In this document: in pieces, positions 199 to 18,302 of the stretch | Position numbering within the stretch: position 1 is the first letter of the stretch | Layout: every line of letters starts with the position of its first letter | Origin: Alphaproteobacteria bacterium | GTDB lineage: Bacteria; Pseudomonadota; Alphaproteobacteria; UBA7887 | Direction of reading: 5' to 3' | Assembly (NCBI GenBank): GCA_965216755.1 | Contig: CBDCGL010000011.1 | Coordinates: 1,344,001-1,408,000 of the forward strand | Length of the DNA: 64,000 bases | Translations under genes and position numbers: made by a program | The notes under the pieces: model-generated | Seen by the model: the letters and a program-made list of their open reading frames with translations, nothing else | Told to the model about the DNA's origin: nothing | The model's database searches: none

Positions 199-692
199 CT
201 TGGGTTTTCCTCCCTAAAAGGACCGCGCAGCGGATCGTAAACGGTCGGCGGAAAGACTTTGTCGTCAGCCCTGCCCCCCGGCCGGACACCCGCGACACGA
301 TCCGTGATTCTTGAGTCGAACCAAAAGCGTAGCTGGCGTCCGTTTGCGGTTCAAACCGAAAATGCCGCCGATTCAGTTTGTTGCAGCGCAAACTAACGAT
401 CAACCATGCGCAAACGCACATGGCTGCTTGTCAATACGGGCACCGGATGAAACGACATCCGTCTATGAATTCAAGGCTGTAGAGACACCCGGCATACGCT
501 TTAGACGTTCCGAACAAGGTGCCGGTGCGTCGAAATGCAGGTCACCGCGACGTGCCGGTGGATTGCCATGCGCGCCCGAGTCGATGCCAATTTCCAAGAA
601 ACTTGAGATTGACTAGAACATTTGTAGTCCGAAACGCCGTGCGATTCGCAGGTTTCGTCGCGCGTCGCCCCTACCTATTGCTGACACGGCGC

Positions 693-1709
693 TTACGTGT
701 AAAGCCGCTCGCCTCTTATACCCTCATATAGATGGGCGACCTGATCCGCGTATCCGTTGAAGAGCAATGTTGGTATTTTCTCTTTCGACCCCAACCGCTT
801 CTCAGTCCGTTGACTCCAACGCGGGTGGCGGACTTTAGGATTGACGTTCGCCCAAAAGCCATACTCGTTCGGTTGGACGTCCTCCCAAAACGTCTGCGGC
901 CTGTCTTCCACCAGCGTGAATCGCGTGATGGACTTGATGTGCTTAAAGCCATATTTCCAAGGCACCGCGAGACGCAACGGCGCCCCATTCTGTTCCGGCA
1001 AAGGCTTGCCATAGGCGCCGACAACGACGAAGGCGAGTTCATTGGTCGCCTCGTCAATAGTCAAAGCCTCCGTATACGGCCACGGATACCACGCCTGGCG
1101 TTGGCCAGGCGCGATATCGCTGTCGAAGAAGCTTTCCATGCGAAGAAACTTGGCGTCGCTCAAAGGGCGCGCCATGGCGATCAGCTCGCTAAGCGGAAAT
1201 CCGCTCCAGGGCACCACCATCGACCAGGCTTCGACACAACGATGCCGATATACCCGCTCCTCGAGCGGCATTCTGTGAACCAAATCATCGAATGAAATCG
1301 AGATCGGTTTTTCGACCAATCCGTCGATGGTGACATCCCAGGGGCTGGTCTGAAGGTTGACGGCCGTTTTCCATATGTTCTTGTGCGAGCCGAACTCGAG
1401 AAAATTGTTGTACCGAGTCACCAACTTTTTCTCCGTGATCGAGTCGTCAGCCACGTACGCGGCATTGCGCATGACCGGGAGAAGCTCGGCAACCGAGCGT
1501 GCCCCCGCGGTCGATATTTCCGGTGCATCCGGCGCTGCCGATTGTTCGCCTTCGTCGCCCGTATCACACGCGGCGATAAGTCCCGTTACCGACACCATCG
1601 TGGAGGCTATCGCCAACCCGCGCAGAAACTTACGGCGTTCCCGGAATGTATGCTCGGGAGTCACGGCGCTCTCGTCGATCGCCCATCCGGGCCGCACACG
1701 CACCAGCAT
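693..1709 (-). CDS. msrP: Protein-methionine-sulfoxide reductase catalytic subunit MsrP (YedY), Moco-dependent
   Basis: VTPE..F..RRKFL Tat signal; YNNFLEFG, RHRCVEAWSMVVPW (Mo-ligating Cys), QNGAPLRLAVPWKYGFKHIKSI and EYGFWANVNP..HPRWSQ motifs. Confidence 0.95.
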   Translation of the reverse strand: MLVRVRPGWAIDESAVTPEHTFRERRKFLRGLAIASTMVSVTGLIAACDTGDEGEQSAAPDAPEISTAGARSVAELLPVMRNAAYVADDSITEKKLVTRYNNFLEFGSHKNIWKTAVNLQTSPWDVTIDGLVEKPISISFDDLVHRMPLEERVYRHRCVEAWSMVVPWSGFPLSELIAMARPLSDAKFLRMESFFDSDIAPGQRQAWYPWPYTEALTIDEATNELAFVVVGAYGKPLPEQNGAPLRLAVPWKYGFKHIKSITRFTLVEDRPQTFWEDVQPNEYGFWANVNPKVRHPRWSQRTEKRLGSKEKIPTLLFNGYADQVAHLYEGIRGERLYT

Positions 1710-1843
1710 ATCCTTACATCACCTGCCCGGCCCGAAGTACCAGATCCGAAGTCAACATATGCCGTGTACATAGCGTATATCGCGACAGCCACGCCATAAA
1801 CAAATTTGTGCGCCACGCAGTCATACCAATCCCGAGCGGCATT

Positions 1844-2266
1844 CTATTGTGAGGCAAGTGGATAAAGTATCAACGCGCCATTTGGCGCGATCCAATACCA
1901 CCCGTGAGCGCCCGCATGGATCTCAGTTGGTTCACCCGCCTCGGCCATACCAAAGAAACCCGGCACGTTCGGGACCATCGGCATAGCCGGCATACCCACC
2001 ATGCCGACCATCCCCGCTTGCGGCATGGTCGGCCCCGACGGATACAGGGCCAACTGACCCGTGGTCAGGATTCGATACCATCCCGTTGACCCCAGGACAC
2101 CCCCAGCAGTGTAGCCGCGCGTCGCAGGATCCAAGCTCGATTGGCTTGCCGCAACCGTCCCCCCTGCGACCATCAAGAAAAGACACGCCAAAACTAGGCC
2201 ACCGTAAGCCTTTAGCTTGTAGCTACCGCACCTGTCCGGTGCCACCCTCGTGCCCAGCGTGTTCAC
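1844..2266 (-). CDS. Small secreted Met/Gly-rich protein with two copies of a G[WF][YF]x[IV]xxxGx[LI]xLYP motif
   Basis: Hydrophobic signal-like segment; GWYRILTTGQLALYP and GWYWIAPNGALILYP flank MPQAGMVGMVGMPAMPMVP. GTG start overlaps the stop of the regulator gene. Confidence 0.7.
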   Translation of the reverse strand: MNTLGTRVAPDRCGSYKLKAYGGLVLACLFLMVAGGTVAASQSSLDPATRGYTAGGVLGSTGWYRILTTGQLALYPSGPTMPQAGMVGMVGMPAMPMVPNVPGFFGMAEAGEPTEIHAGAHGWYWIAPNGALILYPLASQ

Positions 2267-3624
2267 GTCGAACCCGACGACTCCTCATGCAAACCATATT
2301 TTCGGATCAGACGGTACGTGTTTCGCTCACTTATTCCAAGTGTGGCCGCAACTTTTACCCTATGACCCGAGTATTTTTCCAAGAGATGCTTCAGATAATC
2401 TTGCTCTATTTCTTTCAAGCTCGGTTCGTGATCAAATGACAAGACCAACTCCTCGGCCTTCGGCGACTGCTCGGTCGACAGAACGACATGCTCTTCATGA
2501 ATGGTCGGATGTGCACCGGACAGAATTATCGCGCGCTCCACTACATTCTTCAGCTCTCGCACGTTACCCGGCCAATCATATGCCATCATTCTTTTCATGG
2601 CGCGCCGCGATACGCGCTTGTCAATCCGTCTTGAAAAATCGTGATTGCTAATGAAATGATTAACCAAGTCTTCAATGTCCTCTCGACGTTCACGCAATGG
2701 CGGTACCGTTATGACAAAGGCACTGAGTCGATAAAACAAATCTGAACGAAACCGGCCGTCCCGACTGAACTTCTCTAGATTGGCATTTGTCGCGGCAACA
2801 ATTCGAACATGCGCTGTCAGGTCCTTTGTGCCGCCGACGCGCCGGAATTGACCGGATTCAAGAACGCGCAGCAACTTTGCCTGGATGGACGAAGTGATTT
2901 CGCCGATCTCATCGAGAAAGAGCGTGCCGCCTTCGGCCCCCTCGATTAACCCTTTCTTCTGTCGATCAGCACCGGTAAAGGACCCACGCTCATGGCCGAA
3001 AAGTTCCGATTCGAACAACGTTTCCTGTAAGGTACAGCAGTCCAACGCGACAAAATTGCGATTTAGTCGCGCGCTGCGTTCGTGGATTTCGTGGGCGACA
3101 AGCTCCTTGCCGACACCGCTTTCGCCTTGGATCAAAACGGTCATATCCGACGGCGCCACAGCATCGATCAGACGATTGACCTGCTCCACCGCCGTGCTGT
3201 TGCCGACCAAAAAAGTTCGCCGACTGGTGCGCAACCGATCTTCAACAAACTGCAAATTGCGGCGCAGCGCGGCATTCTCCAAGACTCGGTCGACAACGAC
3301 TTCCAATTCTTCCAAGTTGACGGGCTTGGAGAGATAGTCGGCAACGCCCAACTGCATGGCCTTCACGGCTTTCTGCACAGACGCATATGCCGTTAATATG
3401 ATGACCGGTTGCTGCGCGACGAGATCCGAAAGGAATTCGTACCCGTCAGCATCAGGTAGTCGTGGATCAAGAACGATCAGGTGTGGCTCGTACGCTGTCA
3501 GATAGTTTTCCGCAGCCGCCCAACAATCGACGCCCTCGGTTGCATAGCCGACTTGGTTGAGTTGCTTGACAAGCAAACTATTCAGAACTTGATCGTCCTC
3601 AATGATCAATATGTTCGGCTTCAA
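2263..3624 (-). CDS. Sigma54-dependent response regulator (NtrC/AtoC family: REC-AAA+-HTH)
   Basis: ILIIEDD receiver, GESGVGKE Walker A, ESELFGHERGSFTGA, LFLDEIGE, WPGNVREL, C-terminal Fis-type HTH. Probable TTG start at 3624 with GGGAG RBS. Confidence 0.95.
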   Translation of the reverse strand: MKPNILIIEDDQVLNSLLVKQLNQVGYATEGVDCWAAAENYLTAYEPHLIVLDPRLPDADGYEFLSDLVAQQPVIILTAYASVQKAVKAMQLGVADYLSKPVNLEELEVVVDRVLENAALRRNLQFVEDRLRTSRRTFLVGNSTAVEQVNRLIDAVAPSDMTVLIQGESGVGKELVAHEIHERSARLNRNFVALDCCTLQETLFESELFGHERGSFTGADRQKKGLIEGAEGGTLFLDEIGEITSSIQAKLLRVLESGQFRRVGGTKDLTAHVRIVAATNANLEKFSRDGRFRSDLFYRLSAFVITVPPLRERREDIEDLVNHFISNHDFSRRIDKRVSRRAMKRMMAYDWPGNVRELKNVVERAIILSGAHPTIHEEHVVLSTEQSPKAEELVLSFDHEPSLKEIEQDYLKHLLEKYSGHRVKVAATLGISERNTYRLIRKYGLHEESSGST

Positions 3625-5512
3625 CGCAGGCTCCCTGATCGACAACTGCCTGATATCCGGCGCGCGGCAACCGAATCTCAAATAGGGTTCCGACGCCGAC
3701 ACCACTCCTTACCTCGATCGTGCCCCCGTAGCGCTCGATGATAGCTTTGGCAATCGAAAGGCCCAATCCGGTCCCTTTTTCACCATCTGCCCGGCGGCTG
3801 AAAAATGGATCATAAATGTGAGGAAGGTCTCCAGGCTGGATCCCACAGCCCGTATCCTCGAATATGATTTCTACGTTGTCTTGCGTCTCCGAAGTCGCGA
3901 TTCTGAGTTCGTCGCCCGGCGACATGGCGTGAAACGCGTTTTGCACAAAATTCAGGACAATCATTCGAATCTCGCTGTCGCTGCACAGTACGCGCGGTTG
4001 CCGCGGATCCAGATCAAGCTCTATGCGATGTTCATGCGACTTGGATTCAAACGACAATAGAGACACGGTGTCGCTGATCGCACGGTTGACATCGACCAGT
4101 TCCGGGGACCTGCTTGGTGGTGCGCTCAACTTCATCAAGCGCTCTGTCACTTCGATGCATTTATCGATCTCAGTATCGACAGTACTCAGATACTGACCTA
4201 TGTCATCAAGGGACTTATCTTCCCGCCCCGTTGCTCGGAGCGCCGCTTGCAGCGCCAACCTGATAGAGCTCAGCGGATTGTGGATTTCGTGCGCGACACC
4301 CGTGGCGAGTTGGTCCAATTCCTTCAACTTCTGCTCTTGGGAAATTTGCATCTCGTTTGATAGGTCGCGAATGGACTCAACGACCAGCGTCTTCGGCCGT
4401 CCCTCTTCTTCCAACATAAGTGGTGCGGCGTAAACCTGCACCCGCGACAGGGACCCGTCGTTTAGAACATGCTGGTGGATCGTCTTTACGGGTTTCCCTG
4501 TGCGCGCGATTTCAGTCAACGGACAAATGACCAATCCAGCCGGACAGGGGCTTTCGCGGCGATGACTTGACTCATAGCAGGGTATGCCGACCACGTCGGT
4601 CATATGAACGCCAAGATGGCGACAATAGGCCGAATTCGCCGTGACGATCGCGTGGTCCGAATCGATCACACGCAATGGATCTGGATTTGCTTCCAACAAT
4701 GCTTGCAGAAATTGCCCTCGCCTTTGCGATTCCCGGATACTTGTCGCCAGATTGTGTGCCATTTCGTTGAAACGGTTTTCAAGCTCGGCCATTTCGTCAC
4801 GCCCACGTACGGCGACTCGGCTATCAAGCTGTCCCGAAGACAGTTTGCGCGTCGCCGTCGCCAACTGGCGAACTGGGCGAACCACGTTGTTGCGGACAAA
4901 CCACCATCCAGCACCAACCGTCAACAACACCACGAGCGCGCCCGAACCGGTTAACATAAAGGCCAGCATACGGGCATCCCGACGCACCGGCGCGGCGTCA
5001 TAGTCGACAAAGATGACACCATTGACCGGATGCGCTTCGACCGAACCATGACACCCGATACAAGCAGGGCGGTTCCGGATCGGGTTCACGCTGCGCAACA
5101 CCTCCCGTCCCTGCGCATCAACAGTAAAAACACTGCGCGGCCGGGACGCCGTCTCCGATGCGTGACACCCGGCGCAGGCAGGATCGGTGCCGCGGTCAAA
5201 CCGTATTCCGACACGATCTCCTGACGATGCAAACCTCACTTCACCCGCCGGGTTCACAATCATGACGCCGCTAATCCCCTGCTGCTGACCGAGGCGTACG
5301 ACAATATCCCGCAATCCACTCAGGTCTCTTTTCAGCATCGCATTCTCTAGCGATGCTTGGAGCAAGCGATTGATCTGTGTTGAGGCCTCCGTGCGTTCGC
5401 GCTCCAGTTGCGCGCGATACATGCCGACAAACAGCACTAAGAAAATAAGCGACGCGGCAACCAGACCAATCGTCATAATGACGGTAAATCTACGATCTAG
5501 TCGCGATATCAA
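3599..5512 (-). CDS. Membrane sensor histidine kinase with periplasmic diheme-c domain, HAMP, PAS, HisKA and HATPase domains
   Basis: Two TM segments flank CAGCH (5162-5176) and CIGCH (5048-5062); HAMP (GRDEMAEL), Cys-rich PAS (CYESSHRRESPC..CP), AHEIHNPL H-box, DTGCGI and GTGLGL boxes. Start uncertain (ORF extends to 5587; TTG at 5512 has an RBS). Confidence 0.92.
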   Translation of the reverse strand: MISRLDRRFTVIMTIGLVAASLIFLVLFVGMYRAQLERERTEASTQINRLLQASLENAMLKRDLSGLRDIVVRLGQQQGISGVMIVNPAGEVRFASSGDRVGIRFDRGTDPACAGCHASETASRPRSVFTVDAQGREVLRSVNPIRNRPACIGCHGSVEAHPVNGVIFVDYDAAPVRRDARMLAFMLTGSGALVVLLTVGAGWWFVRNNVVRPVRQLATATRKLSSGQLDSRVAVRGRDEMAELENRFNEMAHNLATSIRESQRRGQFLQALLEANPDPLRVIDSDHAIVTANSAYCRHLGVHMTDVVGIPCYESSHRRESPCPAGLVICPLTEIARTGKPVKTIHQHVLNDGSLSRVQVYAAPLMLEEEGRPKTLVVESIRDLSNEMQISQEQKLKELDQLATGVAHEIHNPLSSIRLALQAALRATGREDKSLDDIGQYLSTVDTEIDKCIEVTERLMKLSAPPSRSPELVDVNRAISDTVSLLSFESKSHEHRIELDLDPRQPRVLCSDSEIRMIVLNFVQNAFHAMSPGDELRIATSETQDNVEIIFEDTGCGIQPGDLPHIYDPFFSRRADGEKGTGLGLSIAKAIIERYGGTIEVRSGVGVGTLFEIRLPRAGYQAVVDQGACVEAEHIDH

Positions 5513-5647
5513 CGGCGTGACCCTCAGCCAGAAACCCCTTTTGACAATGTCACAAATCGGACATTTCAATTGGGCCCAAAAAAGCACATAGTTATAAGGG
5601 TTTTTGGGACGTAACGCCAGCGCGGCGCCCTCCCAACGCGAGTCGTC

Positions 5648-6700
5648 TTATGCCAAGACTTGAAAGAGATTGAGCTTTCGTCCGGTTTCACGACATACCC
5701 AACACGTCGCGGACTCAAGAGCCTGGTCGCCCGGCATGTGAAACGGCGTACCACAGCGCGCACAGACCTGGCGCCGCAACGGCAATTGAAGCTGCGTGGG
5801 CGCGATGTCGGTCCCGATCGATATGGCGTGCTGTCTGCAAACATCCACACACAGCATACACCCACTGCATCGGTTCGCCTTCAGCCCATAGTGCGTATTG
5901 TCACCGTCACGCCGCAGAGTGATCGCGCCATGTGCGCACAAGCGCACGCAGGCGTCACAGCCCGAGCACCGTTCGCTGTCGATCTCCGGGACAAAGGGAA
6001 GTAGAGCCGTATCGCCATCCGCGAACAGAGGTGGCCTGTGCTTTGGCCGTGGCGCCTCGTCCGCGACCGTCTGTCGCTCGACGCGATCGATAAGTGTACT
6101 AACCATACCCTTCAGGAGCGAACGACGGCCGAGCCCGTTGTCGCGCCGGCGCACTTCGGCGCCGTCACGCGCCGCCCGCCACTTGCCGACGGGCAGCAAG
6201 CGAATGGCCAAAGCCGGCTGGTCCCGCGCCGACAAATACTGGTTCACGGTATCAACGACAGACTCAAGGCGCATACACGCCCCCCGCCGGCATGTGTCAC
6301 ATGGTGCCTCGGCGACCCACAACGTATAGATTCCGCGGTCGTGAAGTTGGAACAAAGCACGCATCGAAATTGCATGGACACATGGCACGACGCCTGCGCC
6401 GTCGTCGCTTGTCGCAGTATCGCAGGCGACGAACGCGACGCCTTGCCCGCGCACATCACGCATTGTTGTGGCAAATTTGGCCTCGATCGCGGATTCTGGG
6501 CATACTGCCGCGCACAGGCCGCAGCCGTCGCAACGGCCGACGTCGATCATCAAGCCATCATCGCACAACGACAAAGCGCCTTCGGGGCAGGCCTTGACAC
6601 AGGCGGTGCATGTCGCATCGACCGTACGCCCGTGGACGCATAAGTTGCCATCAATCTCGGGACATTGATCGTGCGCCGCATCCCTCGGCGAATCCGCCAT
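5648..6700 (-). CDS. Polyferredoxin / multi-[4Fe-4S] protein associated with the molybdoenzyme
   Basis: CTACVKACP, CDGCGLCAAVCP, CSGCDACVRLC, CSGCMLCVDVC plus further CxxC pairs. Confidence 0.85.
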   Translation of the reverse strand: MADSPRDAAHDQCPEIDGNLCVHGRTVDATCTACVKACPEGALSLCDDGLMIDVGRCDGCGLCAAVCPESAIEAKFATTMRDVRGQGVAFVACDTATSDDGAGVVPCVHAISMRALFQLHDRGIYTLWVAEAPCDTCRRGACMRLESVVDTVNQYLSARDQPALAIRLLPVGKWRAARDGAEVRRRDNGLGRRSLLKGMVSTLIDRVERQTVADEAPRPKHRPPLFADGDTALLPFVPEIDSERCSGCDACVRLCAHGAITLRRDGDNTHYGLKANRCSGCMLCVDVCRQHAISIGTDIAPTQLQLPLRRQVCARCGTPFHMPGDQALESATCWVCRETGRKLNLFQVLA

Positions 6701-6714
6701 TTCCAATCGACCAA

Positions 6715-7488
6715 TCACCAACTCGGCGCGGTGCCAGGTAGATAAGTTGGGCCCAATTCGCCGCAGTCTTTTGAAAATCTCTTGTTGGCGCGTAGCTGCT
6801 CGTAGTTGGGCTTGGGCTGATCAAGTGCAAGTGCGAACAATTCACGTGCGCGATGAAGATAGGCTGCAGTCGTTCCCGCCAAACCCGCGTAGAAAGGCAT
6901 TTCGCACCGCGCCATGACGCGCTCCGCGAAAGCGTCGATCCAGAGCAGGAGGTGCTGATCCAAAAACGCTGCCGCGTCTCTCACCGCCTGCAAATCGCGT
7001 CCATCCGTCAGCAACCGGCCAACAAACTGCAGTTGCAAAACCAGGTGATCATCCGCGCGACTTGCCCAGTCTTGAACACAAACACCGTGGCGCCGGTACC
7101 AAGCCCGCACTTCAAACATCGGTTGCTGACGTTCCAATCCATCTTCGTCCAGCCACACCGATTCGTAAGGGGACGCGCGGTAGCCATGCGTCAAATAGAT
7201 TTCGCCATATTCGACCGCGAGCCGATCCAGTACGTCATCACCAGGTGTATCTGGCAACGCCGCCACCGCCTGATCGAATATATCGAGTGCGGCGCGTCCC
7301 GCCGCCGTCTCCAGTCGAAGACCCAGGCTTTGGGCAAGCCCTTCTTCACGCAGCGCTGCTAGGGTCTTCGCCTCTGGCTCCTTGTCATGAAGCATGGCCA
7401 AGAGCTTGAGATCCGCGGCCACACTCGTCCGCAGTTGGTCGAGCAAATCACGACCCCCGGGCATCTCGGACGCCACGGCCGATGCCAT
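6715..7488 (-). CDS. dmsD: TorD/DmsD-family molybdoenzyme maturation chaperone
   Basis: SPYESVWL and ADDHLVLQLQF motifs, FLDQHLLLW; directly downstream of the dmsB-like gene. Confidence 0.88.
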   Translation of the reverse strand: MASAVASEMPGGRDLLDQLRTSVAADLKLLAMLHDKEPEAKTLAALREEGLAQSLGLRLETAAGRAALDIFDQAVAALPDTPGDDVLDRLAVEYGEIYLTHGYRASPYESVWLDEDGLERQQPMFEVRAWYRRHGVCVQDWASRADDHLVLQLQFVGRLLTDGRDLQAVRDAAAFLDQHLLLWIDAFAERVMARCEMPFYAGLAGTTAAYLHRARELFALALDQPKPNYEQLRANKRFSKDCGELGPTYLPGTAPSW

Positions 7489-7489
7489 T

Positions 7490-8161: not shown

Positions 8162-8184
8162 GGAACAACTCCCCCTAAAACGTT

Positions 8185-10725
8185 TTAGTTGTCACGCCGG
8201 AAAACGTGGCCACGTGCCGTGGCAAGCTTGTCCCATCCGGGCCTGTGGGTGAGCTCTGTCTTGGACATGTTGACCAGAATCGTATTGTACGCGAACGCGC
8301 CCGCCGGACTCGGTTCGTCGGCTGTCAAGAAGTCCGGATTGCCCGAGCGGTCGACCCCTGTTTCATCGAGATCCATCCAGGCCCCTTCGTGCAGAACGAC
8401 GACGCCGGGCATGCACCTTTCGGTCACATAGGCCGGCACAACCGTGGCACCACGATCGTTCCAAACATAGACGGCGTCACCAGTCTTGATACCCAACCCC
8501 TCGGCGTCTTTCGTGTTGATCGTCACCTCTTGCTCGTAGGTCTCGCGCAACCAAGGAATGTTGTTGAAGATCGAATGGGTGCGCCACCGGGGATGCGGCG
8601 TGATCATGTGGAACGGATACTTCTCCGCTTTCGGGTGATTGAGCGACTCCCACGGCTCAATCCATTTCGGGATGTAAGGGATCGGCGCGCCAAACTGCGT
8701 CTTCTTCCAATCCGTGACCGACGCCAACTGTGTCGAGAAAATCTCAACCTTTCCTGACGGAGTCGAGAACGGTTGACCTTTCTCGACTTGATCCCGGAAC
8801 GCAACGTGTGGTTCGTCGAGCTCAAATTTGTAGACCCCACGTTTCTTGAACTCATCCCACGATATCTCGACGTGGTGGTGATGCCGTACTTTGGTCTCCC
8901 ACCACTCACTGAGATACGCTTCGTCGACAGCGTCGTCATTGTAGAAATAGTCGCGCGTGGCCTTCGGATTGAAGACGTTTCCAAATCCCAATCGGAAGCC
9001 GAGCTCGGTGAAGATCTGCAAGTCGCTTTTGCTTTCCCCCAACGGCTCAATGACTTTCGGCCGATGAATGTAGTAATGCCCCTTGTACCAAGGTAGGGCC
9101 ACGTCGTGCCGTTCGAAATGCGTGGCTACCGGTAGTAACACGTCGGCCCAAATCCCGGACGGGGTTATCGTGGAGTCTTGGCAAACCACGAGATCAAGCT
9201 TCTTTATGGCTTCGATCTCTTTGTTGATATTCGTCAACTGATTGAACCAATCGGATGCCTGCCACCAAATTGCACGGATATTCGGAATCACGCCGTCCAT
9301 TGGCCCAGGTTTTGGCCACAATCCAACATCCTCGCGCCGCACATACGGGTAGTTCAACACACAATGCGCCCACCGATCGGACTTAATCGCAGCCGCGTGC
9401 ACGTTAGCATATTGATCGTATGGGCCGGCGACGCTTTCCATATGCCAGCCCTTGCCGACACCTTCACTCGAACCGCCCAAAACACCGATGTTCCCGGTTT
9501 GCGCTTGCAGCGCCGCGGCCATACGGCTGTATTGTTCCCCATAGGCGGCGCGCCCGGGCGCCCAAGACGCCTTGAGCGCGGCTGGCTTGGTTGTGCCATA
9601 CATTTCGGCCAATTTCTTGATGTCCGCGGCGGACACACCGCAAATGGGTTCGGCCCACTCCGGTGTTTTTGGTTGACCATCATAACGGCCATAAATGTAG
9701 TCGCGGAAGTTCTCCATATTGGCCGCCCAGGGCGGCATGGTGCCCTGATCCATTCCCAAGCAGAATCTATCGATGAAATCTTGATCCTGCCAATTATTCT
9801 CAAAAATGTGGAAGGCCATGGCGGCAAGCATCGCCGCGTCTGTGTTCGGCTTGATCGGAATCCACCATGCGTCGTAGGCGGCTGCCGAGTCCGTGTACTG
9901 AGGATCGACGACGACAAATTTGCAGCCGCGTTGCTTCGCCAGCCGCATATAGTAGAACGTATTGCCGCCATGAAATGTGTAAGCCGGATTCCAGCCCCAC
10001 ATAATGATCAATTTGGAATGAGCGAACGCGTCATCCTCGTTGCCGTCTTCGATTGTTCCGAACGTCTGTAGTGAACTAAATGTTGTACCTTGATAGGATG
10101 GCACGGACCATGACACGGTGCGGCAGCCAAATATGCCGAGGAACCGACCCAGAGACCCTTCGATCTGATCCGACTTGTGCAGGGCACCCCAAGACGCACC
10201 CGCATAGGACTGATCGAGAATGGCCGTCGGGCCGTATGTATTCTTCAGGTGCAACATGCGCTCGGCGAGATAGTCAAGGGTATAGTCCCAAGACGCGCGT
10301 TTGAACTTGCCCTCACCACGTGCGCCGACCCGGATCATTGGGTAAAGCAACCGTTCCGGCGAATAAATACGCGATCGATACGATCGGCCACGCAAGCAAG
10401 CCCGCACTTGCGGCACCGCTTCCGTGTCAGTGTTAAACGCATCGCCTTGATAGGTTCCGTCGTCCGTCGACAAGCGAACGATCACATTGCCCTTTTTGTG
10501 CGCAACCAGCATATGGCGCGAACCACAGTTGTGTGCGCAGCTGGTGACAACCGTGGTGAGCTCATCATCCGTGTAATAGGGCTCATAAGCGAACGCGTCA
10601 GCCTGTTGGCTCTGTGCGGTGCTCACCAAGCCGGCCGTCGCGCCGGCGGCGGCCGATTGCAGAAAGCCCCGCCGCGAAACATTGAACGCTGATCTCAATT
10701 CATCCAGGCGATTTTGTTTAGTCAT
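8185..10725 (-). CDS. dmsA: Tat-exported DMSO-reductase-family molybdoenzyme catalytic subunit (DmsA/YnfE-like); substrate unknown
   Basis: SRRGFLQ Tat motif; N-terminal CAHNCGSRH..RACLRGR resembling E. coli DmsA CTVNCGSRC..RACLRGR; RLLYPM.RVG.RGEGKF, WGWNP, PIKPNTDAAM, ADVLLP, RWRTHS and C-terminal molybdopterin-binding domain. Confidence 0.85.
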   Translation of the reverse strand: MTKQNRLDELRSAFNVSRRGFLQSAAAGATAGLVSTAQSQQADAFAYEPYYTDDELTTVVTSCAHNCGSRHMLVAHKKGNVIVRLSTDDGTYQGDAFNTDTEAVPQVRACLRGRSYRSRIYSPERLLYPMIRVGARGEGKFKRASWDYTLDYLAERMLHLKNTYGPTAILDQSYAGASWGALHKSDQIEGSLGRFLGIFGCRTVSWSVPSYQGTTFSSLQTFGTIEDGNEDDAFAHSKLIIMWGWNPAYTFHGGNTFYYMRLAKQRGCKFVVVDPQYTDSAAAYDAWWIPIKPNTDAAMLAAMAFHIFENNWQDQDFIDRFCLGMDQGTMPPWAANMENFRDYIYGRYDGQPKTPEWAEPICGVSAADIKKLAEMYGTTKPAALKASWAPGRAAYGEQYSRMAAALQAQTGNIGVLGGSSEGVGKGWHMESVAGPYDQYANVHAAAIKSDRWAHCVLNYPYVRREDVGLWPKPGPMDGVIPNIRAIWWQASDWFNQLTNINKEIEAIKKLDLVVCQDSTITPSGIWADVLLPVATHFERHDVALPWYKGHYYIHRPKVIEPLGESKSDLQIFTELGFRLGFGNVFNPKATRDYFYNDDAVDEAYLSEWWETKVRHHHHVEISWDEFKKRGVYKFELDEPHVAFRDQVEKGQPFSTPSGKVEIFSTQLASVTDWKKTQFGAPIPYIPKWIEPWESLNHPKAEKYPFHMITPHPRWRTHSIFNNIPWLRETYEQEVTINTKDAEGLGIKTGDAVYVWNDRGATVVPAYVTERCMPGVVVLHEGAWMDLDETGVDRSGNPDFLTADEPSPAGAFAYNTILVNMSKTELTHRPGWDKLATARGHVFRRDN

Positions 10726-10795
10726 TACTGAGTTCCTGTCTGGTGTCGCCTACTGCACAACTTGTCGTTGCTATTTCCTGCCATGACGTTTGACG

Positions 10796-11596
10796 TCACT
10801 GCGCGTTGATGCGAAAGCGTGACGCCGACTCGGTCGGGCGATCGACCGCCCATTCCGGCGTTTCTTCCGGCATGTCCGGCCAAGGATGTCGCGGGTATGG
10901 ATACGATGTCGCGTACCACGCACGGCCACCATGACAGCCGTAGCAAACATCTGAGCTCTCTCTTGCCAGTTCTTCTATGGCATCTGCCTTGAGGTAGTTG
11001 ACGTTGTGCCGAACCGTACGGAACAGTTCCTCATGACACAGCTGGCATCCATTGGGTGTCGCCTCATCCTCCAGATCAACACGAACTTCTGGCCAAGGCC
11101 CCTCGACGCCGAGCATCAGTTCGTTTGGAAAACGCCCATGACACAACAAGCACGTTTCTTGAGGGACCACCGACTTACGTAAACTAAATCCAGCGTCAGC
11201 GGCGGTCGGTGGTATGGGTGCTTCTTCACGGGGATCGTGACCCAGGTGGCAGGTGTTGCATTGCAAATCCATAACCTGCGTCGCGTATGGGGTTATCAAA
11301 TGCCTCCGATGAAAAGTTTCTTGATCTCCCTGATATGTATCCAATGTCTGATACCACGCCGTTGATTCCACAGCTTCAACGCCTGCCGGCGACTCGCTTA
11401 GAACGCGGCGGTCGATAATTTCCTGGTGACAGGACAAACATTGATCGTTCGTTGCTGACTCGATTGCCGGCCGGAAATGAATTGGATCCCAGATGGCGCT
11501 CTCATAGTCGATCTCCGCGGCACTAGCACCGGACGCCGCCCACAACCCGACATACATGGCAGTCAACGGCCGCACGATGGCCATCACCTTATTCAT
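10796..11596 (-). CDS. Periplasmic pentaheme cytochrome c
   Basis: Sec signal (ASA-A) and five CxxCH motifs: CLSCH, CNTCH, CLLCH, CQLCH, CYGCH. Confidence 0.9.
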   Translation of the reverse strand: MNKVMAIVRPLTAMYVGLWAASGASAAEIDYESAIWDPIHFRPAIESATNDQCLSCHQEIIDRRVLSESPAGVEAVESTAWYQTLDTYQGDQETFHRRHLITPYATQVMDLQCNTCHLGHDPREEAPIPPTAADAGFSLRKSVVPQETCLLCHGRFPNELMLGVEGPWPEVRVDLEDEATPNGCQLCHEELFRTVRHNVNYLKADAIEELARESSDVCYGCHGGRAWYATSYPYPRHPWPDMPEETPEWAVDRPTESASRFRINAQ

Positions 11597-11967
11597 TGTT
11601 GCCCCACCACTTGTTGCGTCGCCCCACTCATGGAGGCCGTTTCTTCATTGGATATCTCGCTGTGGCTCTGGTGCCATCCACGAATGTCGTACGGTCCGGT
11701 CATGCCTGGACGTGTAAAAGGCGTGAACCAGGCCCCCTGATCTTCGAGAAAACGGAGACTATAGGGATAAGGACTGTCGACGCCTGTGAGGGCGTGGTCA
11801 TACCAAGCCCCATTCTTTTCCAACTCATGGACCACCGGCGCGTCTGCCGGCCGCTGATCTGGCTTGGTTCCAGCGACTGAAAGAGTTGTTTGGCTGGCTT
11901 GCGCGCCTACATGTCCGAGACTGGCCAGAACGACACCCGCCAGCGGCACAAGTTTCCACAGTGTCAT
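11593..11967 (-). CDS. Small secreted hypothetical protein co-transcribed with the cytochrome and molybdoenzyme
   Basis: Signal peptide MTLWKLVPLAGVVLASLGHVGAQA; aromatic core PYPYSLRFLEDQGAWFTPFTRPGMTGPYDIRGWH; stop overlaps the cytochrome start (ATGA). Confidence 0.75.
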   Translation of the reverse strand: MTLWKLVPLAGVVLASLGHVGAQASQTTLSVAGTKPDQRPADAPVVHELEKNGAWYDHALTGVDSPYPYSLRFLEDQGAWFTPFTRPGMTGPYDIRGWHQSHSEISNEETASMSGATQQVVGQQ

Positions 11968-12082
11968 GCTATTTCTCACTCTTCTTTTTCTTGCCCGCAC
12001 GCGTCGTCCCTCCCGGCTGGTAAACGCTGTCAAAGAAAATCCTGAACTCTTGGTCATCCTGCCAGTCGCTGGCCTCATCCGG

Positions 12083-12541
12083 CTAGTTTGTCACGTCGGA
12101 GTTATCCTGATCCACATTGCTCGGTCCCGCCATCGGTTGTGTGGCAGTCGGTGCCTGGCCATGCATCCACGGCATGGAGCGCGGTCCTTGTTGGCCAAAT
12201 AACAAGCCCGCCGGTGCGTAAAGCAGCAGCCCACCATCTGGCGCGACCCGAAAGAACCCGCGGGAATTGACCAGATTTGTGCTGCCGAACATGCCCAGGA
12301 TCGTGTACATCACCTCAGGCGGCACGACTTGGCTCACAGGATAAAGGACGATCCCCCCATTTGGCATAAACTGAAAGAAGCCATGGGCGTCCACCAACGA
12401 ACCAACGGCGATCGGCTGATCTGGATTAGCCGGCACAAGCGACTGACCATCTTGCGCGAGAACTTGCATCGGTTTGGCCGCCATGAATGCTGTCATGAGC
12501 AAGACGACGCCAAAACTTGTCACACGCCTAATTACAATCAT
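12083..12541 (-). CDS. Small secreted protein with two copies of the aromatic GFFxxxP[ND]GGxxLY motif
   Basis: Signal peptide ending VLA-Q; GFFQFMPNGGIVLYP and GFFRVAPDGGLLLYAP. Confidence 0.72.
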   Translation of the reverse strand: MIVIRRVTSFGVVLLMTAFMAAKPMQVLAQDGQSLVPANPDQPIAVGSLVDAHGFFQFMPNGGIVLYPVSQVVPPEVMYTILGMFGSTNLVNSRGFFRVAPDGGLLLYAPAGLLFGQQGPRSMPWMHGQAPTATQPMAGPSNVDQDNSDVTN

Positions 12542-12612
12542 TGTCTAACTCACAATGTTCCGATCGTGCCATCATGCGTGAAGGTCGCAATCGGGAAGAA
12601 AGAGGCTTCGCG

Positions 12613-12670
12613 GTGAGTGTCCGGAAAACAACTGACTCGACTTCTGTCGGCGTTCACCGGACACATACAC
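12613..12670 (-). other. Long imperfect intergenic hairpin just downstream of the Met-rich gene
   Basis: gtgtccgg (12617-12624) pairs with ccggacac (12657-12664), with inner aac/gtt and ctgac/gtcgg pairing. Confidence 0.45.
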
Positions 12671-12690
12671 CATGCTAGCGCTTTAGCGTT

Positions 12691-14088
12691 TTAGCGCGGC
12701 GGTTCCCAGTTGCGGGCTGCCATACCTGGCATACCTTGCATGCCCCACATGCCGGGCATACCCTGCATGCCCCACATTCCGGGCATACCCTGCATGCCCC
12801 ACATTCCGGGCATACCCTGCATGCCCCACATTCCGGGCATGCCCTGCATACCCCACATTCCGGGGTAGCTGGCGTACATCCCCCACATGCCGGGGTTCAT
12901 CCCCCACATACCAGGCATACCTTGCATGCCCCACATACCGGGCATGCCGTACATGCCGCCCATGCCCCACATGCCAGGGTTCATGCCCCACATACCGGGC
13001 ATACCTTGCATGCCCCACATACCGGGCATGCCGTACATACCGCGCATGCCCCACATGCCAGGCATTCCGTACATGCCGCCCATACCGGGCATGCCGTACA
13101 TGCCGCCCATGCCCCACATGCCAGGCATTCCGTACATGCCGCCCATACCGGGCATGCCGTACATGCCGCCCATGCCCCACATGCCGGGGTTCATCCCCCA
13201 CATGCCGCGCATGCCATACATGCCGGGCATTCCGTACATGCCACCCATGCCGCGCATGCCCCACATGCCGGGCATTCCGTACATGCCGCCCATGCCGGGA
13301 TAGTTCGCGTACATGCCATACATACCGCCCATACCGGGCATTCCGTACATACCGCCCATGCCCCACATGCCGGGGTTCATCCCCCACATGCCGCGCATGC
13401 CATACATGCCGGGCATTCCGTACATGCCACCCATGCCGCGCATGCCCCACATGCCGGGCATTCCGTACATGCCGCCCATGCCGGGATAGTTCGCGTACAT
13501 GCCATACATACCGCCCATACCGGGCATTCCGTACATACCGCCCATGCCGGGCATGCCGTACATGCCGCCCATACCGGGCATGCCGTACATGCCGCCCATA
13601 CCGGGCATTCCGTACATGCCGCCCATGCCCCACATGCCGGGGTTCATCCCCCACATGCCGCGCATGCCATACATGCCGGGCGTTCCGTACATGCCGCCCA
13701 TGCCGGGATAGTTCGCGTACATGCCGCCCATGCCCCACATGCCGGGGTTCATCCCCCACATGCCGCCCATGCCGGGATAGTTCGCGTACATGCCGCCCAT
13801 GCCCCACATGCCGGGATTCATCCCCCACATGCCGCGCATGCCATACATGCCGCCCATGCCCCACATGCCGGGGTTCATCCCCCACATGCCGCGCATGCCA
13901 TACATGCCGGGCATTCCGTACATGCCACCCATGCCGGGATAGTTCGCGTACATGCCGGGCATGCCTTGCATGCTCCACATGCCGGGATACATCCCCTGCA
14001 TACCTTGGCCGGCGGATGGCTGTGACATCATTAGCATCGCGCCAATGACCATCGCCGTACCGGCCACTCTCCTTAGCTGCTTCAACAT
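12691..14088 (-). CDS. Secreted methionine-rich (Gly-Met-Xaa)n repeat protein 1 (465 aa)
   Basis: GAGGAAGG RBS, Sec signal [27 protein letters not shown], then about 430 aa of [18 protein letters not shown] triplets with GMNP and ANYP interruptions. Confidence 0.85.
12720..14000. repeat. Coding tandem repeat (9-bp-based units) including a near-exact 186-bp duplication
   Basis: Recurrent catgccgggc / ccccacatg units; tagttcgcgtacatgccatac recurs at 13301 and 13487, 186 bp apart. Confidence 0.9.
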
Positions 14089-14413
14089 TTAACGAACCTT
14101 CCTCATAACAATTGTTCGGTCGGCTTAGACTTCACTCAATCCTCGAATCCCAGTTGCAAGTGCCGCCGTTCAAGGTCCGACACCGACAAATCTCGATCTT
14201 GGACCGGCGTTGCGGACAGAACATCAGCTATGCATCGTTGTTCCGTGAACCCTATCCATTTGTTCGCACTGCAACCTTTCGCCGTTTTATTGACGGCATT
14301 GAATAAAAAGATCTGTGGCTTACGCCCCGTTCTTGAGGGAACGGCCCAGTTGCTCTGTCAGAATTCCCAAGCCATGGTGGGCGCTCTGTTGCGCCCACCA
14401 TGCTGCAGTCGAC

Positions 14414-15451
14414 TTAGCCGTCTTTATCGTCGTCGGACTCACCCGACATGCCTTCCATGCCGGACATACCTTCCATGCCGGTCATGCCGGACATACCGCT
14501 CATGCCGGACATACCTTCCATGCCGGACATACCGCCCATGCCGGACATACCTTCCATGCCGGACATGCCTTCCATGCCGGTCATGCCTTCCATGCCGGTC
14601 ATTCCGGGCATCCCCGTCATACCCATTCCAGGCATGCCGTACATTCCGCCCATGCCGGGCTGTAACGCAGCCAAGTTTGCCGGATAGAGCGTGATGACGT
14701 TACCAGGGCCAACGGTGAAGTAGCCGGCGAAGACCGCGCCACCACTCATGCCTTGCATGCCGCCCATACCGGGCATGCCTTGCATGCCGCCCATACCGGG
14801 CATGCCTTGCATTCCCCACATACCGGGCATGCCTTGCATACCCCACATACCGGGCATGCCTTGCATACCCCACATGCCGGGCATGCCTTGCATTCCCCAC
14901 ATGCCGGGCATGCCTTGCATTCCCCACATACCGGGCATGCCTTGCATTCCCCACATGCCGGGCGTGCCTTGCATTCCCCACATGCCGGGCATGCCTTGCA
15001 TTCCCCACATGCCGGGATAGTTGGCATACCGTTGGCCTTGCATGCCCCACATGCCGGGGTTCATCCCCCACATGCCGGGCATACCTTGCATACCCCACAT
15101 ACCGGGATAGTTCGAATACTGTTGACCTTGCATGCCCCACATGCCGGGGTTCATCCCCCACATGCCGGGCATACCTTGCATACCCCACATGCCGGGCATA
15201 CCTTGCATACCCCACATACCGGGCATACCTTGCATACCCCACATACCGGGCATGCCTTGCATACCCCACATGCCGGGATAGTTCGAATACTGCTGACCTT
15301 GCATGCCCCACATACCGGGCATACCTTGCATACCCCATTGATTGGGCATAGTTTGCTGGCTATGTGCCGTGCTTGTCGCGCTCAGTGACGCCATCGCAAC
15401 AACGGCAACGAGGCCAACAACCCTCCCAATCTTTTTTAGCGTACTAATCAT
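14414..15451 (-). CDS. Secreted methionine-rich (Gly-Met-Xaa)n repeat protein 2 (345 aa) with aromatic motif and acidic tail
   Basis: GAGG RBS, signal peptide ending TAHS-Q, (GMQGMPGMW)n block, one GYFTVGPGNVITLYP motif, then (GMEGMS/T)n and GESDDDKDG. Confidence 0.85.
   Translation of the reverse strand: MISTLKKIGRVVGLVAVVAMASLSATSTAHSQQTMPNQWGMQGMPGMWGMQGQQYSNYPGMWGMQGMPGMWGMQGMPGMWGMQGMPGMWGMQGMPGMWGMNPGMWGMQGQQYSNYPGMWGMQGMPGMWGMNPGMWGMQGQRYANYPGMWGMQGMPGMWGMQGTPGMWGMQGMPGMWGMQGMPGMWGMQGMPGMWGMQGMPGMWGMQGMPGMWGMQGMPGMGGMQGMPGMGGMQGMSGGAVFAGYFTVGPGNVITLYPANLAALQPGMGGMYGMPGMGMTGMPGMTGMEGMTGMEGMSGMEGMSGMGGMSGMEGMSGMSGMSGMTGMEGMSGMEGMSGESDDDKDG
14445..15340. repeat. Coding tandem repeats (27-bp GMQGMPGMW units and 18-bp GMEGMS units)
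   Basis: Repeated ccttgcat(a/t)ccccacat(a/g)ccgggcat(g/a) and ccttccatgccggacat units. Confidence 0.9.
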
Positions 15452-15622
15452 TCGTACCTCTATGTCGCCGTCTCCCGTGGAGACAGCGGTCCTTTAATGT
15501 GCTGACCGAGAAAAGACGCCGCAGCACCCGGGATGAACATTTCCTAGGTACTGTGGCTCGAATTCCCACCTAACTGCTTGCCTTCCCGTTGACGCCGCTG
15601 ATTGCGGCGCCGGCTTTTTAAT

Positions 15623-15640
15623 AAGCAGATTTCGTGCCAG
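15623..15640 (-). promoter_or_regulatory. Sigma54 (-24/-12) promoter of the Met-rich protein/molybdoenzyme cluster
   Basis: Minus strand reads CTGGCACGAAATCTGCTT, with GG-N10-GC spacing and TGGCACG matching consensus, about 170 bp upstream of 15451. Confidence 0.85.
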
Positions 15641-15656
15641 CCTTAGCGTGCAAGCG

Positions 15657-15669
15657 TAAGTATTTGAAA
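15657..15669 (-). promoter_or_regulatory. Putative IHF site
   Basis: TTTCAAATACTTA versus consensus WATCAANNNNTTR (one mismatch), between the promoter and the upstream palindrome. Confidence 0.5.
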
Positions 15670-15716
15670 TTTTGTATGAATTCGACTTCGGCCACGTTCA
15701 AGGGCCTGTCTCTAAC

Positions 15717-15731
15717 CTGCCAAATTGGCAG
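15717..15731. promoter_or_regulatory. Putative upstream activator (enhancer) site
   Basis: Perfect palindrome CTGCCAA-A-TTGGCAG about 80 bp upstream of the -24 element. Confidence 0.55.
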
Positions 15732-18293: not shown

Positions 18294-18302
18294 CAGATTG
18301 CA

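Follow-up and report, generated by a model that had tools for sequence, protein, structure and literature searches.

A gene cluster pairing secreted (Gly-Met-X)n proteins with a DmsAB-type molybdoenzyme belongs to a module conserved across Proteobacteria and may serve a periplasmic methionine redox cycle

Results

Gene content of the cluster

A run of genes on the minus strand of contig CBDCGL010000011.1 (assembly GCA_965216755.1), from an alphaproteobacterium of the UBA7887 lineage, encodes two secreted (Gly-Met-X)n proteins, here termed GMx proteins, alongside a predicted periplasmic molybdoenzyme of the DmsAB type, and is the subject of this analysis. The stretch of DNA analyzed, referred to as the window, comprises 64,000 nucleotides (nt; contig positions 1,344,001 to 1,408,000), and coordinates without a label refer to it. 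Cluster open reading frames (ORFs) were listed from window positions 1-18000 and then scanned against the Pfam and NCBIfam families. The original prediction had described a single co-oriented minus-strand run spanning 693-15731, with a sigma-54 promoter and two (Gly-Met-X)n proteins, and all of these, together with the 13 genes, are present in the order it gave. The gene span also holds, and only the upper limit requires correction, as the regulatory region extends to approximately position 15796, where the distal of two palindromic boxes is located.

The putative promoter, a sigma-54-type -24/-12 element (15624-15639, minus strand, as for all cluster features), lies ~170 nt upstream of the start of GM345. 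GM345 (14414-15451) and GM465 (12691-14088), the two GMx proteins, are 345 and 465 amino acids (aa) long and were recognized by ORF and composition. They are followed by LYP152 (12083-12541), a small secreted protein of 152 aa without a family that carries two LYP motifs, and by hyp161, a small Sec-exported protein without a named family (ORF 11593-12078, likely start at 11970). The next three genes encode a cytochrome c with a signal peptide and five CxxCH motifs (10796-11596), a Tat-exported DmsA/YnfE-like molybdopterin catalytic subunit (8185-10725), identified by its best NCBIfam match (TIGR02166), its Tat motif and the Pfam domains PF00384 and PF01568, and a DmsB-like four-cluster ferredoxin subunit (7490-8161; TIGR02951). 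Family scans further identified a TorD/DmsD-family maturation chaperone (6715-7533), a cytoplasmic polyferredoxin that is NapF-like at best (5648-6721), a sensor histidine kinase combining a periplasmic haem-c domain, recognized by its CxxCH motifs, with HAMP, PAS, HisKA and HATPase domains (3599-5587), and an NtrC-type sigma-54 activator composed of a receiver domain, an AAA+ domain and a Fis-type helix-turn-helix (2263-3705). The run closes with LYP140 (1844-2266), a second small secreted LYP-motif protein of 140 aa whose start overlaps the activator stop, and with MsrP (693-1709), the catalytic subunit of a periplasmic protein-methionine-sulfoxide reductase (NF003767, 420 bits against a cut-off of 207). 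Three small cluster proteins (1844-2266, 11593-12078 and 12083-12541) received no family assignment of any kind in these scans.

No Rfam match reached the gathering threshold in window positions 1-20000, and thus no molybdenum cofactor or other riboswitch was found there; scans for sigma-70 promoters and terminators returned nothing above shuffled sequence. The cluster is flanked by an Ldh_2-family dehydrogenase gene (15870-17177, minus strand) and by the gene of a CusB/HlyD-type membrane-fusion protein (17151-18293, plus strand), neither of which recurs beside the module in other loci.

Conservation of the module across Proteobacteria

A search with the DmsA-like protein, using one genome per species, returned 566 relatives, and the best 80 (L008-L087) were analyzed as related loci by searching their ORFs with the 13 proteins of the window. 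These best 80 relatives are 74-78% identical and stem from records labelled as alpha-, beta- and gammaproteobacteria, plus one Desulfobulbus. The carriers include Ca. Thiodiazotropha, other lucinid or tubeworm symbionts, Sedimenticola, Competibacter/Contendobacter, Azonexus, Dechloromonas agitata and Castellaniella, as well as Paracoccus, Rhodovulum imhoffii, Hyphomicrobium and other Hyphomicrobiales. Isolates with a close DmsA comprise, among others, Rhodovulum imhoffii DSM 18064, Zhengella mangrovi, Ruixingdingia sedimenti, Thermopetrobacter sp. TC1 and Dechloromonas agitata, of which D. agitata has no GMx gene. Mean column identity in an alignment of 25 DmsA sequences was 83%. Within the family of the window's own organism, a close DmsA was identified in one of 22 other genomes (78% identity, on a 3.4-kb contig).

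The recurrent gene order at these loci is hyp161, GMx, pentahaem cytochrome, DmsA, DmsB and TorD-like protein, in many cases a polyferredoxin, and after these the kinase and sigma-54 activator; in the Thiodiazotropha/Sedimenticola group the regulators are divergent and upstream. A survey of the neighbourhoods of DmsA homologues for co-occurring Met-rich ORFs, suggested by the original prediction as a check, gave a positive answer. A locus was counted as informative when 1000 nt or more of sequence preceded the cytochrome gene; in 53 of 56 informative loci, a GMx ORF of at least 6 triplets was found upstream of that gene. Among the loci with less than 1000 nt upstream, 19 of 23 still end inside a truncated GMx ORF; L009 is too short to judge, and in L048 the GMx ORF lies on the opposite strand at a contig edge. 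Many metagenome-assembled contigs thus end within the repeat gene, which often interrupts short-read assemblies and probably goes under-reported. The proposed coupling of methionine (Met) polymers to a DmsAB-like enzyme, a pentahaem cytochrome, a haem kinase and sigma-54 control is thus borne out by a gene order that is conserved in distantly related Proteobacteria. The cluster had also been presented as an undescribed locus. No description of the module, of the GMx proteins or of hyp161 was found in open-access papers and bioRxiv; the locus is, however, not unique, being the lineage-specific, enlarged version of a widespread module. Two copies of the unit formed by the pentahaem cytochrome, DmsA and DmsB occur in some genomes (L080:16790-20941, with the second copy ~7 kb downstream, and contigs C37 and C118 of genome G042).

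Composition of the GMx and LYP-motif proteins

Met accounts for 136 residues (29%) of GM465 and 83 (24%) of GM345, with Gly contributing a further 34% and 28%, respectively. Both proteins begin with signal-peptide-like segments and contain Gly-Met-X runs of up to 23-24 triplets, and Gly-X-X runs of up to 23-31 triplets, without interruption. The third-position residue is mainly Y, W, P or G in GM465, and mainly Q, W, P or S in GM345, which also possesses an acidic GM(S/E/T) tail and one LYP-type motif. Charged residues are scarce (1 K, 0 D and 1 E in GM465; 3 K, 4 D and 7 E in GM345), and GM465 lacks both Cys and His. The coding DNA is organized in tandem units of 9, 27, 54 and 81 nt, with one 27-nt array being 95% regular. 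A whole-genome scan identified no ORF of this type besides GM345 and GM465 across the 5.0-Mb genome. As viewed in the first 45 residues of each ORF, the GMx proteins of related loci are mostly (Gly-Met-Ser/Gly)n sequences without Pro, about 120-430 residues long. Those of the window are hence atypical, both in their W/Y/P/Q-rich third position and in being encoded by two large genes, both upstream of hyp161.

The Pfam Collagen model (PF01391) matches both GMx proteins (81.9 and 99.1 bits; cut-off 27.2), owing to the presence of Gly at every third residue. NCBIfam returned only collagen-like adhesin models for them, all far below their cut-offs, and the Collagen match is therefore read as periodicity rather than kinship; a true collagen fold was considered and set aside. 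Two more Met-rich secreted ORFs in the same genome (C11:26240-26944 and C11:2891414-2892073) are of a different, Met/His/Gly-rich type and possibly metal-related. Dense GMx-repeat ORFs without recognizable module genes nearby were also observed in five metagenome loci (L105, L121, L162, L163 and L165), several of them from one metagenome, and these may represent other Gly-Met protein families, possibly eukaryotic.

The LYP motif (G-aromatic-aromatic-x-hydrophobic-x-P-x-G-x-hydrophobic-x-L-Y-P) is present in two copies in each of LYP152 and LYP140, the only ORFs matched by a genome-wide scan with this pattern; the single copy in GM345 does not fit it. LYP140 had been described as another Met-rich motif protein. 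The motif is indeed there, but the protein is Met-rich only locally, in a short linker, with 8 Met in all. The motif was not found in any of the 80 related loci. A word-based homologue search with LYP152 matched only LYP152 itself, and an exhaustive HMMER search with LYP140 produced seven further matches among 1.84 billion representatives, one of which (P0006) was judged spurious. Four of them (P0004, P0005, P0007 and P0009) are small secreted proteins that pair two LYP motifs with Gly/Met-rich repeats. LYP hence appears to be a rare domain that travels with Met-rich repeats, and LYP152 a lineage-specific accessory of the module.

The molybdoenzyme and its cytochrome

The best family match of the catalytic subunit is DmsA/YnfE (TIGR02166, E = 4.5e-182), with a score of 607.1 bits that falls below the cut-off of 777.7; the exception models for YnfE, DmsA and YnfF score 443, 437 and 416 bits, against cut-offs of 1600-1675. 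The best match of the DmsB-like subunit, TIGR02951, likewise remains below its cut-off (190.5 versus 214.1 bits). The closest solved structures to the DmsA-like protein are the Rhodobacter dimethyl sulfoxide (DMSO) reductases and trimethylamine N-oxide reductases. In an alignment to 1eu1, Ser210 corresponds to the molybdenum ligand Ser147 of Rhodobacter DorA, and Tyr174 to its Tyr114. The WSVPSY motif around the ligand Ser is invariant in 81 of 81 homologues, and the enzyme retains the active-site Ser and Tyr typical of S-oxide reductases. The FS0 motif (residues 63-71 in the window protein) reads C-x3-C-x3-H...C; its third position, a Cys in DmsA, is occupied by His in 81 of 81 members, and the Pfam Fe4S4-domain match of this N-terminus reaches 19.3 bits (cut-off 22.7). 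The His may mark an unusual cluster or ligand set. No DmsC/YnfH-type membrane anchor was found among the 13 cluster proteins. The sole PF04976 (DmsC) match in the genome (C11:3201429-3201920, L212) lies ~1.8 Mb from the cluster, which suggests that a separate, anchored DmsABC-like enzyme is encoded in the same genome.

Five invariant CxxCH motifs and several invariant His residues characterize the cytochrome across its homologues. Its N-terminus looks cleavable, with a possible lipobox in 4 of 80 homologues, and its score against the NapC/NirT family (PF03264) is 19.5 bits (cut-off 24.1); no TorC model was among its NCBIfam matches. Given its N-termini and below-cut-off score, the protein is read as a soluble or lipid-anchored electron carrier, and a role as a NapC/TorC-like quinol dehydrogenase was set aside on the same grounds. 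The AlphaFold2 model of the cytochrome is weak (mean predicted local distance difference test, pLDDT, of 61.9), and a Foldseek search of the PDB with this weak model gave no match at E ≤ 0.001. The cytochrome ORF contains six CxxCH motifs in 10 of 80 homologues; one of these, L019:186-1850, is extended at the N-terminus, and the additional monohaem cytochrome c motif lies in that extension. In 15 loci, a further gene for a monohaem cytochrome c is found between chaperone and polyferredoxin. The polyferredoxin, matched by 52 ORFs in the 80 loci, probably helps in maturation or Fe-S loading.

A candidate third subunit

Sequence clusters of the hyp161 family number at least 375; every one is named hypothetical and a Pfam domain is absent from all of them, and ESM Atlas likewise returned only unnamed clusters for the protein. 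The gene is present in 50 of the 80 loci and in 49 of the 56 informative ones, usually as the first module gene. It is kept in two loci that lack a GMx gene (L045 and L083), so that the presence of hyp161 follows that of the enzyme and not that of the polymer. Modelled alone with AlphaFold2, the protein yields a poor model that is mostly coil (pLDDT 70.4; predicted template modelling score 0.35). Modelled together with DmsA, the pair obtains an interface score (ipSAE) of 0.71, versus 0.00 for the best of three controls. The ipSAE mark is reached by 58 of 80 solved complexes and by 2 of 110 mismatched pairs, a calibration that is only rough for our own alignments, which have 25 and 34 rows; model runs agree in at least 37% of contacts, with a partner pLDDT of at least 51. 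The modelled contact involves hyp161 residues 87-99, its most conserved stretch and C-terminal motif, and DmsA segments 78-81, 121-143, 520-525, 559-565, 721-724, 783-785 and 828-832. The model lends support to, without proving, a role for hyp161 as a third enzyme subunit that binds DmsA.

Promoter architecture and regulators

The -24/-12 element of the window deviates by one mismatch from the consensus and is one of two one-mismatch sites in the 64-kb window. Allowing two mismatches, the sigma-54 pattern yields 38 matches in the whole window versus 38.2 expected. The pattern by itself is hence uninformative, and its weight derives from its position and its conservation across loci. Of 47 testable loci, 28 have a -24/-12 motif directly in front of the gene that opens the module, compared to a rate of 0.032 per kb elsewhere in these loci. 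The 260 nt upstream of this motif were surveyed in the window and in 26 of the 28 loci, excluding L055 and L079 due to an ambiguous or distant motif position. A palindromic box (CTG[A/C]CA-N3-TG[G/T]CAG) with at most one mismatch was found in 23 of the 27 regions, versus a background of 0.016 per 280 nt, typically near -103 and again near -160 to -180. The window contains two perfect copies, a proximal one (15717-15731) and a distal one (15782-15796), located 91 and 156 nt upstream of the -24 element. This layout is as expected for an enhancer-binding protein, for which the module's own sigma-54 activator would be the obvious candidate.

The kinase had been predicted to be a dihaem sensor. The window copy does carry two CxxCH motifs (residues 138 and 176); the family does not, with 53 of 55 homologues presenting a single one. 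Only the window and L013 possess the second motif, 37-38 residues before the conserved one, which is embedded at residue 176 in the context ...N-P-x-x-N-x-x-x-C-x-x-C-H-G. Between the divergent kinase gene and hyp161, a conserved 275-aa ORF without a Pfam family was observed in 13 loci of the Thiodiazotropha/Sedimenticola group (L014, L034, L041, L044, L047, L050, L053, L054, L056, L057, L063, L080 and L087).

MsrP and other redox-repair neighbours

MsrP is encoded divergently from hyp161 in L020 and L029, and is also adjacent to the module, at another position, in the window and in metagenome locus L131. The genome analyzed here contains three full-length MsrP paralogues (C11:1344708-1345703, corresponding to window positions 693-1709, C11:3781049-3782026 and C11:3088015-3088965). 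No MsrQ-type protein (PF01794) was detected in this 99.8%-complete genome, nor beside any of the three MsrP genes, with the same search detecting the E. coli control. Neighbouring families were identified by clustering flanking ORFs and scanning representatives against Pfam. An MsrA-MsrB fusion (PMSR and SelR domains) was found in L011, and ORFs of L021, L079 and L086 fall in its blastp cluster, with the Pfam assignment taken from L011. A thioredoxin-like protein with NHL repeats is encoded in 15 loci and another thioredoxin-like protein in three. No recurrent copper, silver, selenium or sulfur-globule genes were identified among the module neighbours of the 80 loci. The accessory genes, few and not phylogenetically independent as they are, point to methionine sulfoxide, since in varied arrangements all relate to sulfoxide or thiol redox repair.

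Discussion

A poly-thioether protein almost always encoded beside an enzyme of the S-oxide-reductase type is most simply accounted for if the sulfoxide form of the polymer is the substrate of that enzyme. With evenly balanced confidence, we propose that the cluster encodes a periplasmic Met/Met-sulfoxide redox cycle in which the GMx polymer would be the macromolecular substrate of the DmsAB-type enzyme. The Sec-exported, probably disordered GMx proteins would offer about 80-135 thioethers per chain, which hypochlorous acid (HOCl), chlorite-derived species, peroxide or peroxynitrite would oxidize to sulfoxides. A soluble, Tat-exported DmsA-DmsB-type reductase, probably with hyp161 as a third subunit, would reduce these sulfoxides back with electrons arriving via the pentahaem cytochrome c, after maturation assisted by the TorD-like and NapF-like proteins. 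The periplasmic haem-c kinase and the sigma-54 activator would switch the operon on from the -24/-12 promoter with its two upstream palindromic boxes. The window carries an enlarged version, in which a pair of very long GMx proteins rich in aromatic residues is joined by two LYP-motif proteins and by MsrP. Gene content, conserved gene order, promoter and box conservation and the active-site residues are direct observations; that the polymer acts as substrate, which way the electrons flow, what induces the operon and what physiological role it has, including that of an oxidant sink, are inferred.

Several published observations are compatible with such a cycle. MrpX and YedY have been reported to form a hypochlorite-scavenging cycle (PMC4436054, in excerpt), and DorA to reduce protein-bound Met sulfoxide (PMC7402097, in excerpt). 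The same excerpt states that chemical oxidation of Met yields both sulfoxide diastereomers and that Dms- and Dor-type enzymes have opposite stereospecificities towards Met sulfoxide. A stereospecific DmsA-type enzyme and the non-stereospecific MsrP would therefore be complementary in the window, with MsrP taking the diastereomer left by the former. MsrP is described, in the part of bioRxiv 10.1101/243626 consulted, as preferring unfolded proteins with clustered Met and as performing several catalytic cycles per substrate molecule. In lucinid symbionts, a DMSO-reductase-like gene is highly expressed together with an aerobic oxidase under oxic conditions (PMC6872982, in excerpt), a point repeated in a 2025 preprint (10.64898/2025.12.05.692423, in excerpt). 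In five Thiodiazotropha genomes, no other gene comes close to the module DmsA in its score against the DmsA/YnfE model (613-630 bits), the next non-module gene reaching at most 225, and DmsC-like genes were found in three of the five, on contigs other than that of the module. The most far-reaching version of our proposal, which we regard as unlikely, would make poly(Gly-Met-X) a rechargeable periplasmic redox polymer, with some hundred thioether/sulfoxide groups that DmsA-DmsB-hyp161, linked to the respiratory chain via the pentahaem cytochrome, would charge and discharge. For bacteria that alternate between oxic and anoxic surroundings, it would be oxidant buffer and electron sink in one, and the module would be identified with the unexplained 'DMSO reductase' whose gene is among the most highly expressed in lucinid clam symbionts.

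A number of observations weigh against a polymer-reducing cycle. Both DmsA and DmsB score below the curated family cut-offs, and family membership therefore would not provide substrate specificity. The cytochrome is read as a soluble or lipid-anchored protein and none of the module genes encodes a quinol dehydrogenase, so that the electron path proposed above is tentative. The GMx gene is missing from informative loci L019, L045 and L083 despite the presence of the enzyme genes, and L055 and L082 carry only a GMx peptide of ~60 aa; a large polymer is evidently not required for the enzyme to be present. The related loci are not phylogenetically independent, so that the tallies overstate the number of independent observations. 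Conversely, (GMx)8 runs are not exclusive to the module. Module genes were seen in 7 of 80 metagenome loci with a (GMx)8 DNA pattern (L098, L131, L141, L142, L146, L150 and L158), many of the pattern-matched contigs being short, and most of the remaining loci either show short GM runs within proteins that are unrelated and often long, or come from contigs whose length does not permit a judgement. The presence of GM runs is therefore not diagnostic of the module. MsrP, originally claimed as a partner of the module, is adjacent to it in only 2 of the 80 related loci, and is hence an accessory rather than a core component. Finally, the M-x-x-M spacing of the repeats is also a pattern that binds Cu(I) and Ag(I).

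Among the alternatives, the one that survives best, itself unlikely, is that the same parts have an energetic role, the polymer sulfoxides constituting a periplasmic acceptor reserve that is drawn on by way of the cytochrome and DmsAB once oxygen or nitrate is depleted, and recharged either by oxidants or by the enzyme working in reverse towards high-potential acceptors. Judging from record titles, most carriers are organisms of places where oxic and anoxic zones meet or where conditions cycle (lucinid and tubeworm symbionts, Sedimenticola, Competibacter/Contendobacter, Azonexus, Dechloromonas, Rhodobacterales and Hyphomicrobiales). The expression of the lucinid-symbiont gene alongside an aerobic oxidase (PMC6872982, in excerpt) would also fit, as would the wiring of the enzyme to c-type cytochromes, with the additional monohaem cytochrome in 15 loci. 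By a rough estimate, however, the capacity of a protein store is small relative to respiratory flux, O2 itself does not oxidize Met, and no result distinguishes such a reserve from a protective role. We also know of no enzyme of the DmsA-type family that oxidizes protein Met in vivo, which counts against a store of this kind.

It is also unlikely that the enzyme acts on a small molecule (DMSO, free Met sulfoxide, selenate/tellurate or another oxyanion), with the GMx proteins binding or scaffolding a product such as Se(0) or S(0) particles or a volatile sulfide. The presence of the enzyme without GMx in L045 and L083 would be readily understood, and the nearest named families include the selenate/tellurate reductases YnfE and YnfF (443 and 416 bits) besides DmsA (437), with all scores far below the cut-offs. 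Many carriers are sulfur oxidizers that store S(0), and lucinid-symbiont dmsAB genes have been reported near soxY-S1c and dsrAB (PMC11237559, in excerpt). Many others, however, are not known to form sulfur globules (Paracoccus, Azonexus, Castellaniella and Hyphomicrobiales), a particle-capping protein would be expected to contain Cys and charged residues, which are lacking in the GMx proteins, and the genes that recur beside the module encode Met-sulfoxide reductases and thioredoxin-like proteins instead of selenium or sulfur-globule functions. That a poly-thioether accompanies the enzyme almost everywhere is simpler to explain if the thioether/sulfoxide is the substrate.

Periplasmic sequestration of Cu(I), Ag(I) or Hg by M-x-x-M thioether sites, with the enzyme unrelated or auxiliary, has little probability. 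Such spacing does extend throughout the GMx proteins, where every third residue is Met, and the cluster has a CusB/HlyD-type adaptor gene as its divergent neighbour (17151-18293). The conserved module, in turn, lacks copper and silver resistance genes, the GMx proteins contain no His or Cys and almost no Asp, and the conserved partner is an enzyme of the S-oxide-reductase type. The best family matches of the regulators, a haem-c kinase and a sigma-54 activator, are not of the CusRS/CopRS type. Both the Cu/Ag sponge and the globule scaffold, raised earlier as alternatives, are weakened. A structural or chaperone matrix, be it a collagen-like triple helix or a flexible, mildly hydrophobic holdase or gel of the periplasm that resembles GroEL tails and is tuned by Met oxidation, is very improbable, for while the Collagen match above cut-off (81.9 and 99.1 bits versus 27.2), the Gly-X-X runs of up to 23-31 triplets and LYP-motif domains that could mediate assembly speak for it, as does the occurrence of Gly-Met repeats in chaperonin tails, the match is one of periodicity with collagen-like adhesin models far below their cut-offs, most relatives are (Gly-Met-Ser/Gly)n without Pro, and the conserved reductase, cytochrome and sensor would be left without explanation.

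If the redox cycle on the GMx polymer is correct, the module would represent a third independent way to keep periplasmic Met reduced, besides thiol-based MsrA/B and MsrPQ, in many environmental and symbiotic Proteobacteria, and a respiratory-type DmsAB enzyme would have its own purpose-built polymeric substrate. Members of a highly conserved clade, by routine labelled anaerobic DMSO reductases, would receive a new assignment, which could explain why such a gene ranks among the most highly expressed of lucinid symbionts under oxic conditions (PMC6872982, in excerpt). Three unnamed families, the GMx proteins, hyp161 and the pentahaem cytochrome, would gain a context. As the GMx repeats seem to contain few Lys and Arg, tryptic proteomics would miss these proteins and, with their genes also breaking short-read assemblies, their abundance may be unseen.

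Comparison with known systems

The closest parallel in logic is the MrpX-YedY1Z1 (MsrPQ) system of Azospira suillum PS, in which a secreted Met-rich protein is likewise encoded beside a periplasmic molybdenum enzyme that reduces Met sulfoxide, under a dedicated stress regulator (PMC4436054, in excerpt). The proposed logic of sacrificial oxidation followed by enzymatic regeneration is common to both, and MsrP is also present in the window. MrpX, however, is a small protein in which Met makes up 20% and charged residues 44% (PMC4436054, in excerpt), whereas the window GMx proteins are 345-465 aa long and nearly uncharged, with Met at 24-29% and Gly at 28-34%. The reductase of the former is MsrPQ, while the conserved reductase of the module is a DmsAB-type enzyme with a pentahaem cytochrome, in a genome without a detectable MsrQ. 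Control differs as well, an extracytoplasmic function sigma/anti-sigma pair (SigF/NrsF) in one case, a haem-c kinase and sigma-54 activator acting on a -24/-12 promoter in the other.

With E. coli DmsABC/YnfEFGH, which are membrane-bound reductases of S-/N-oxides and selenate, the module shares its best-scoring families, the Tat signal, the Ser molybdenum ligand and a TorD/DmsD-family chaperone, besides an N-terminal motif that resembles FS0. It differs in scoring below the cut-offs, in the lack of a DmsC/YnfH anchor within the cluster, in its pentahaem cytochrome partner and in the additional small secreted partner hyp161. The FS0 motif of the window clade also has a His in place of the third Cys. 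Rhodobacter DorCA and Haemophilus TorZ/MtsZ-TorY share with the module a soluble, periplasmic S-oxide reductase with a molybdenum bis(molybdopterin guanine dinucleotide) cofactor and a pentahaem c-type cytochrome; in the Haemophilus pair, a DMSO-reductase-family enzyme of the periplasm is reported to reduce Met sulfoxide (PMC5122715, in excerpt). The window enzyme keeps the equivalents of DorA Ser147 and Tyr114. DorA, TorA and TorZ have neither an FS0 domain nor a DmsB subunit, whereas the window enzyme has an FS0-type domain and an adjacent DmsB-like gene. A dedicated Met-rich protein is absent from DorCA and TorZ-TorY, and the window cytochrome falls below the NapC/NirT cut-off without a TorC match.

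The OrhK/OrhR two-component system of uropathogenic E. coli reportedly controls a Met-rich protein together with MsrPQ-like genes. Two-component control of an envelope methionine-redox operon would thus be common to both, with a different sensor, a different regulator class (not sigma-54) and different enzymes. The collagen-like proteins Scl1/Scl2 and Lcl share Gly at every third residue with the GMx proteins, which lack an LPXTG anchor and a globular head, and the Gly-Gly-Met tails of GroEL share flexible repeats made only of Gly and Met, which number just a few on that cytoplasmic chaperonin and in the secreted GMx proteins extend over hundreds of residues. Overall, the system appears to fall outside each of the families compared (MrpX-MsrPQ, DmsABC/YnfEFGH and TorCA/DorCA). 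By its logic it would resemble MrpX-MsrPQ, built from unrelated parts, and those parts relate it to DmsAB/YnfEFG, combined with a cytochrome partner of the Dor/Tor kind. It may therefore be placed among systems that combine a Met-rich sacrificial protein with a molybdenum sulfoxide reductase, of which the window copy would be an enlarged, aromatic-rich member equipped with MsrP and LYP-motif proteins.

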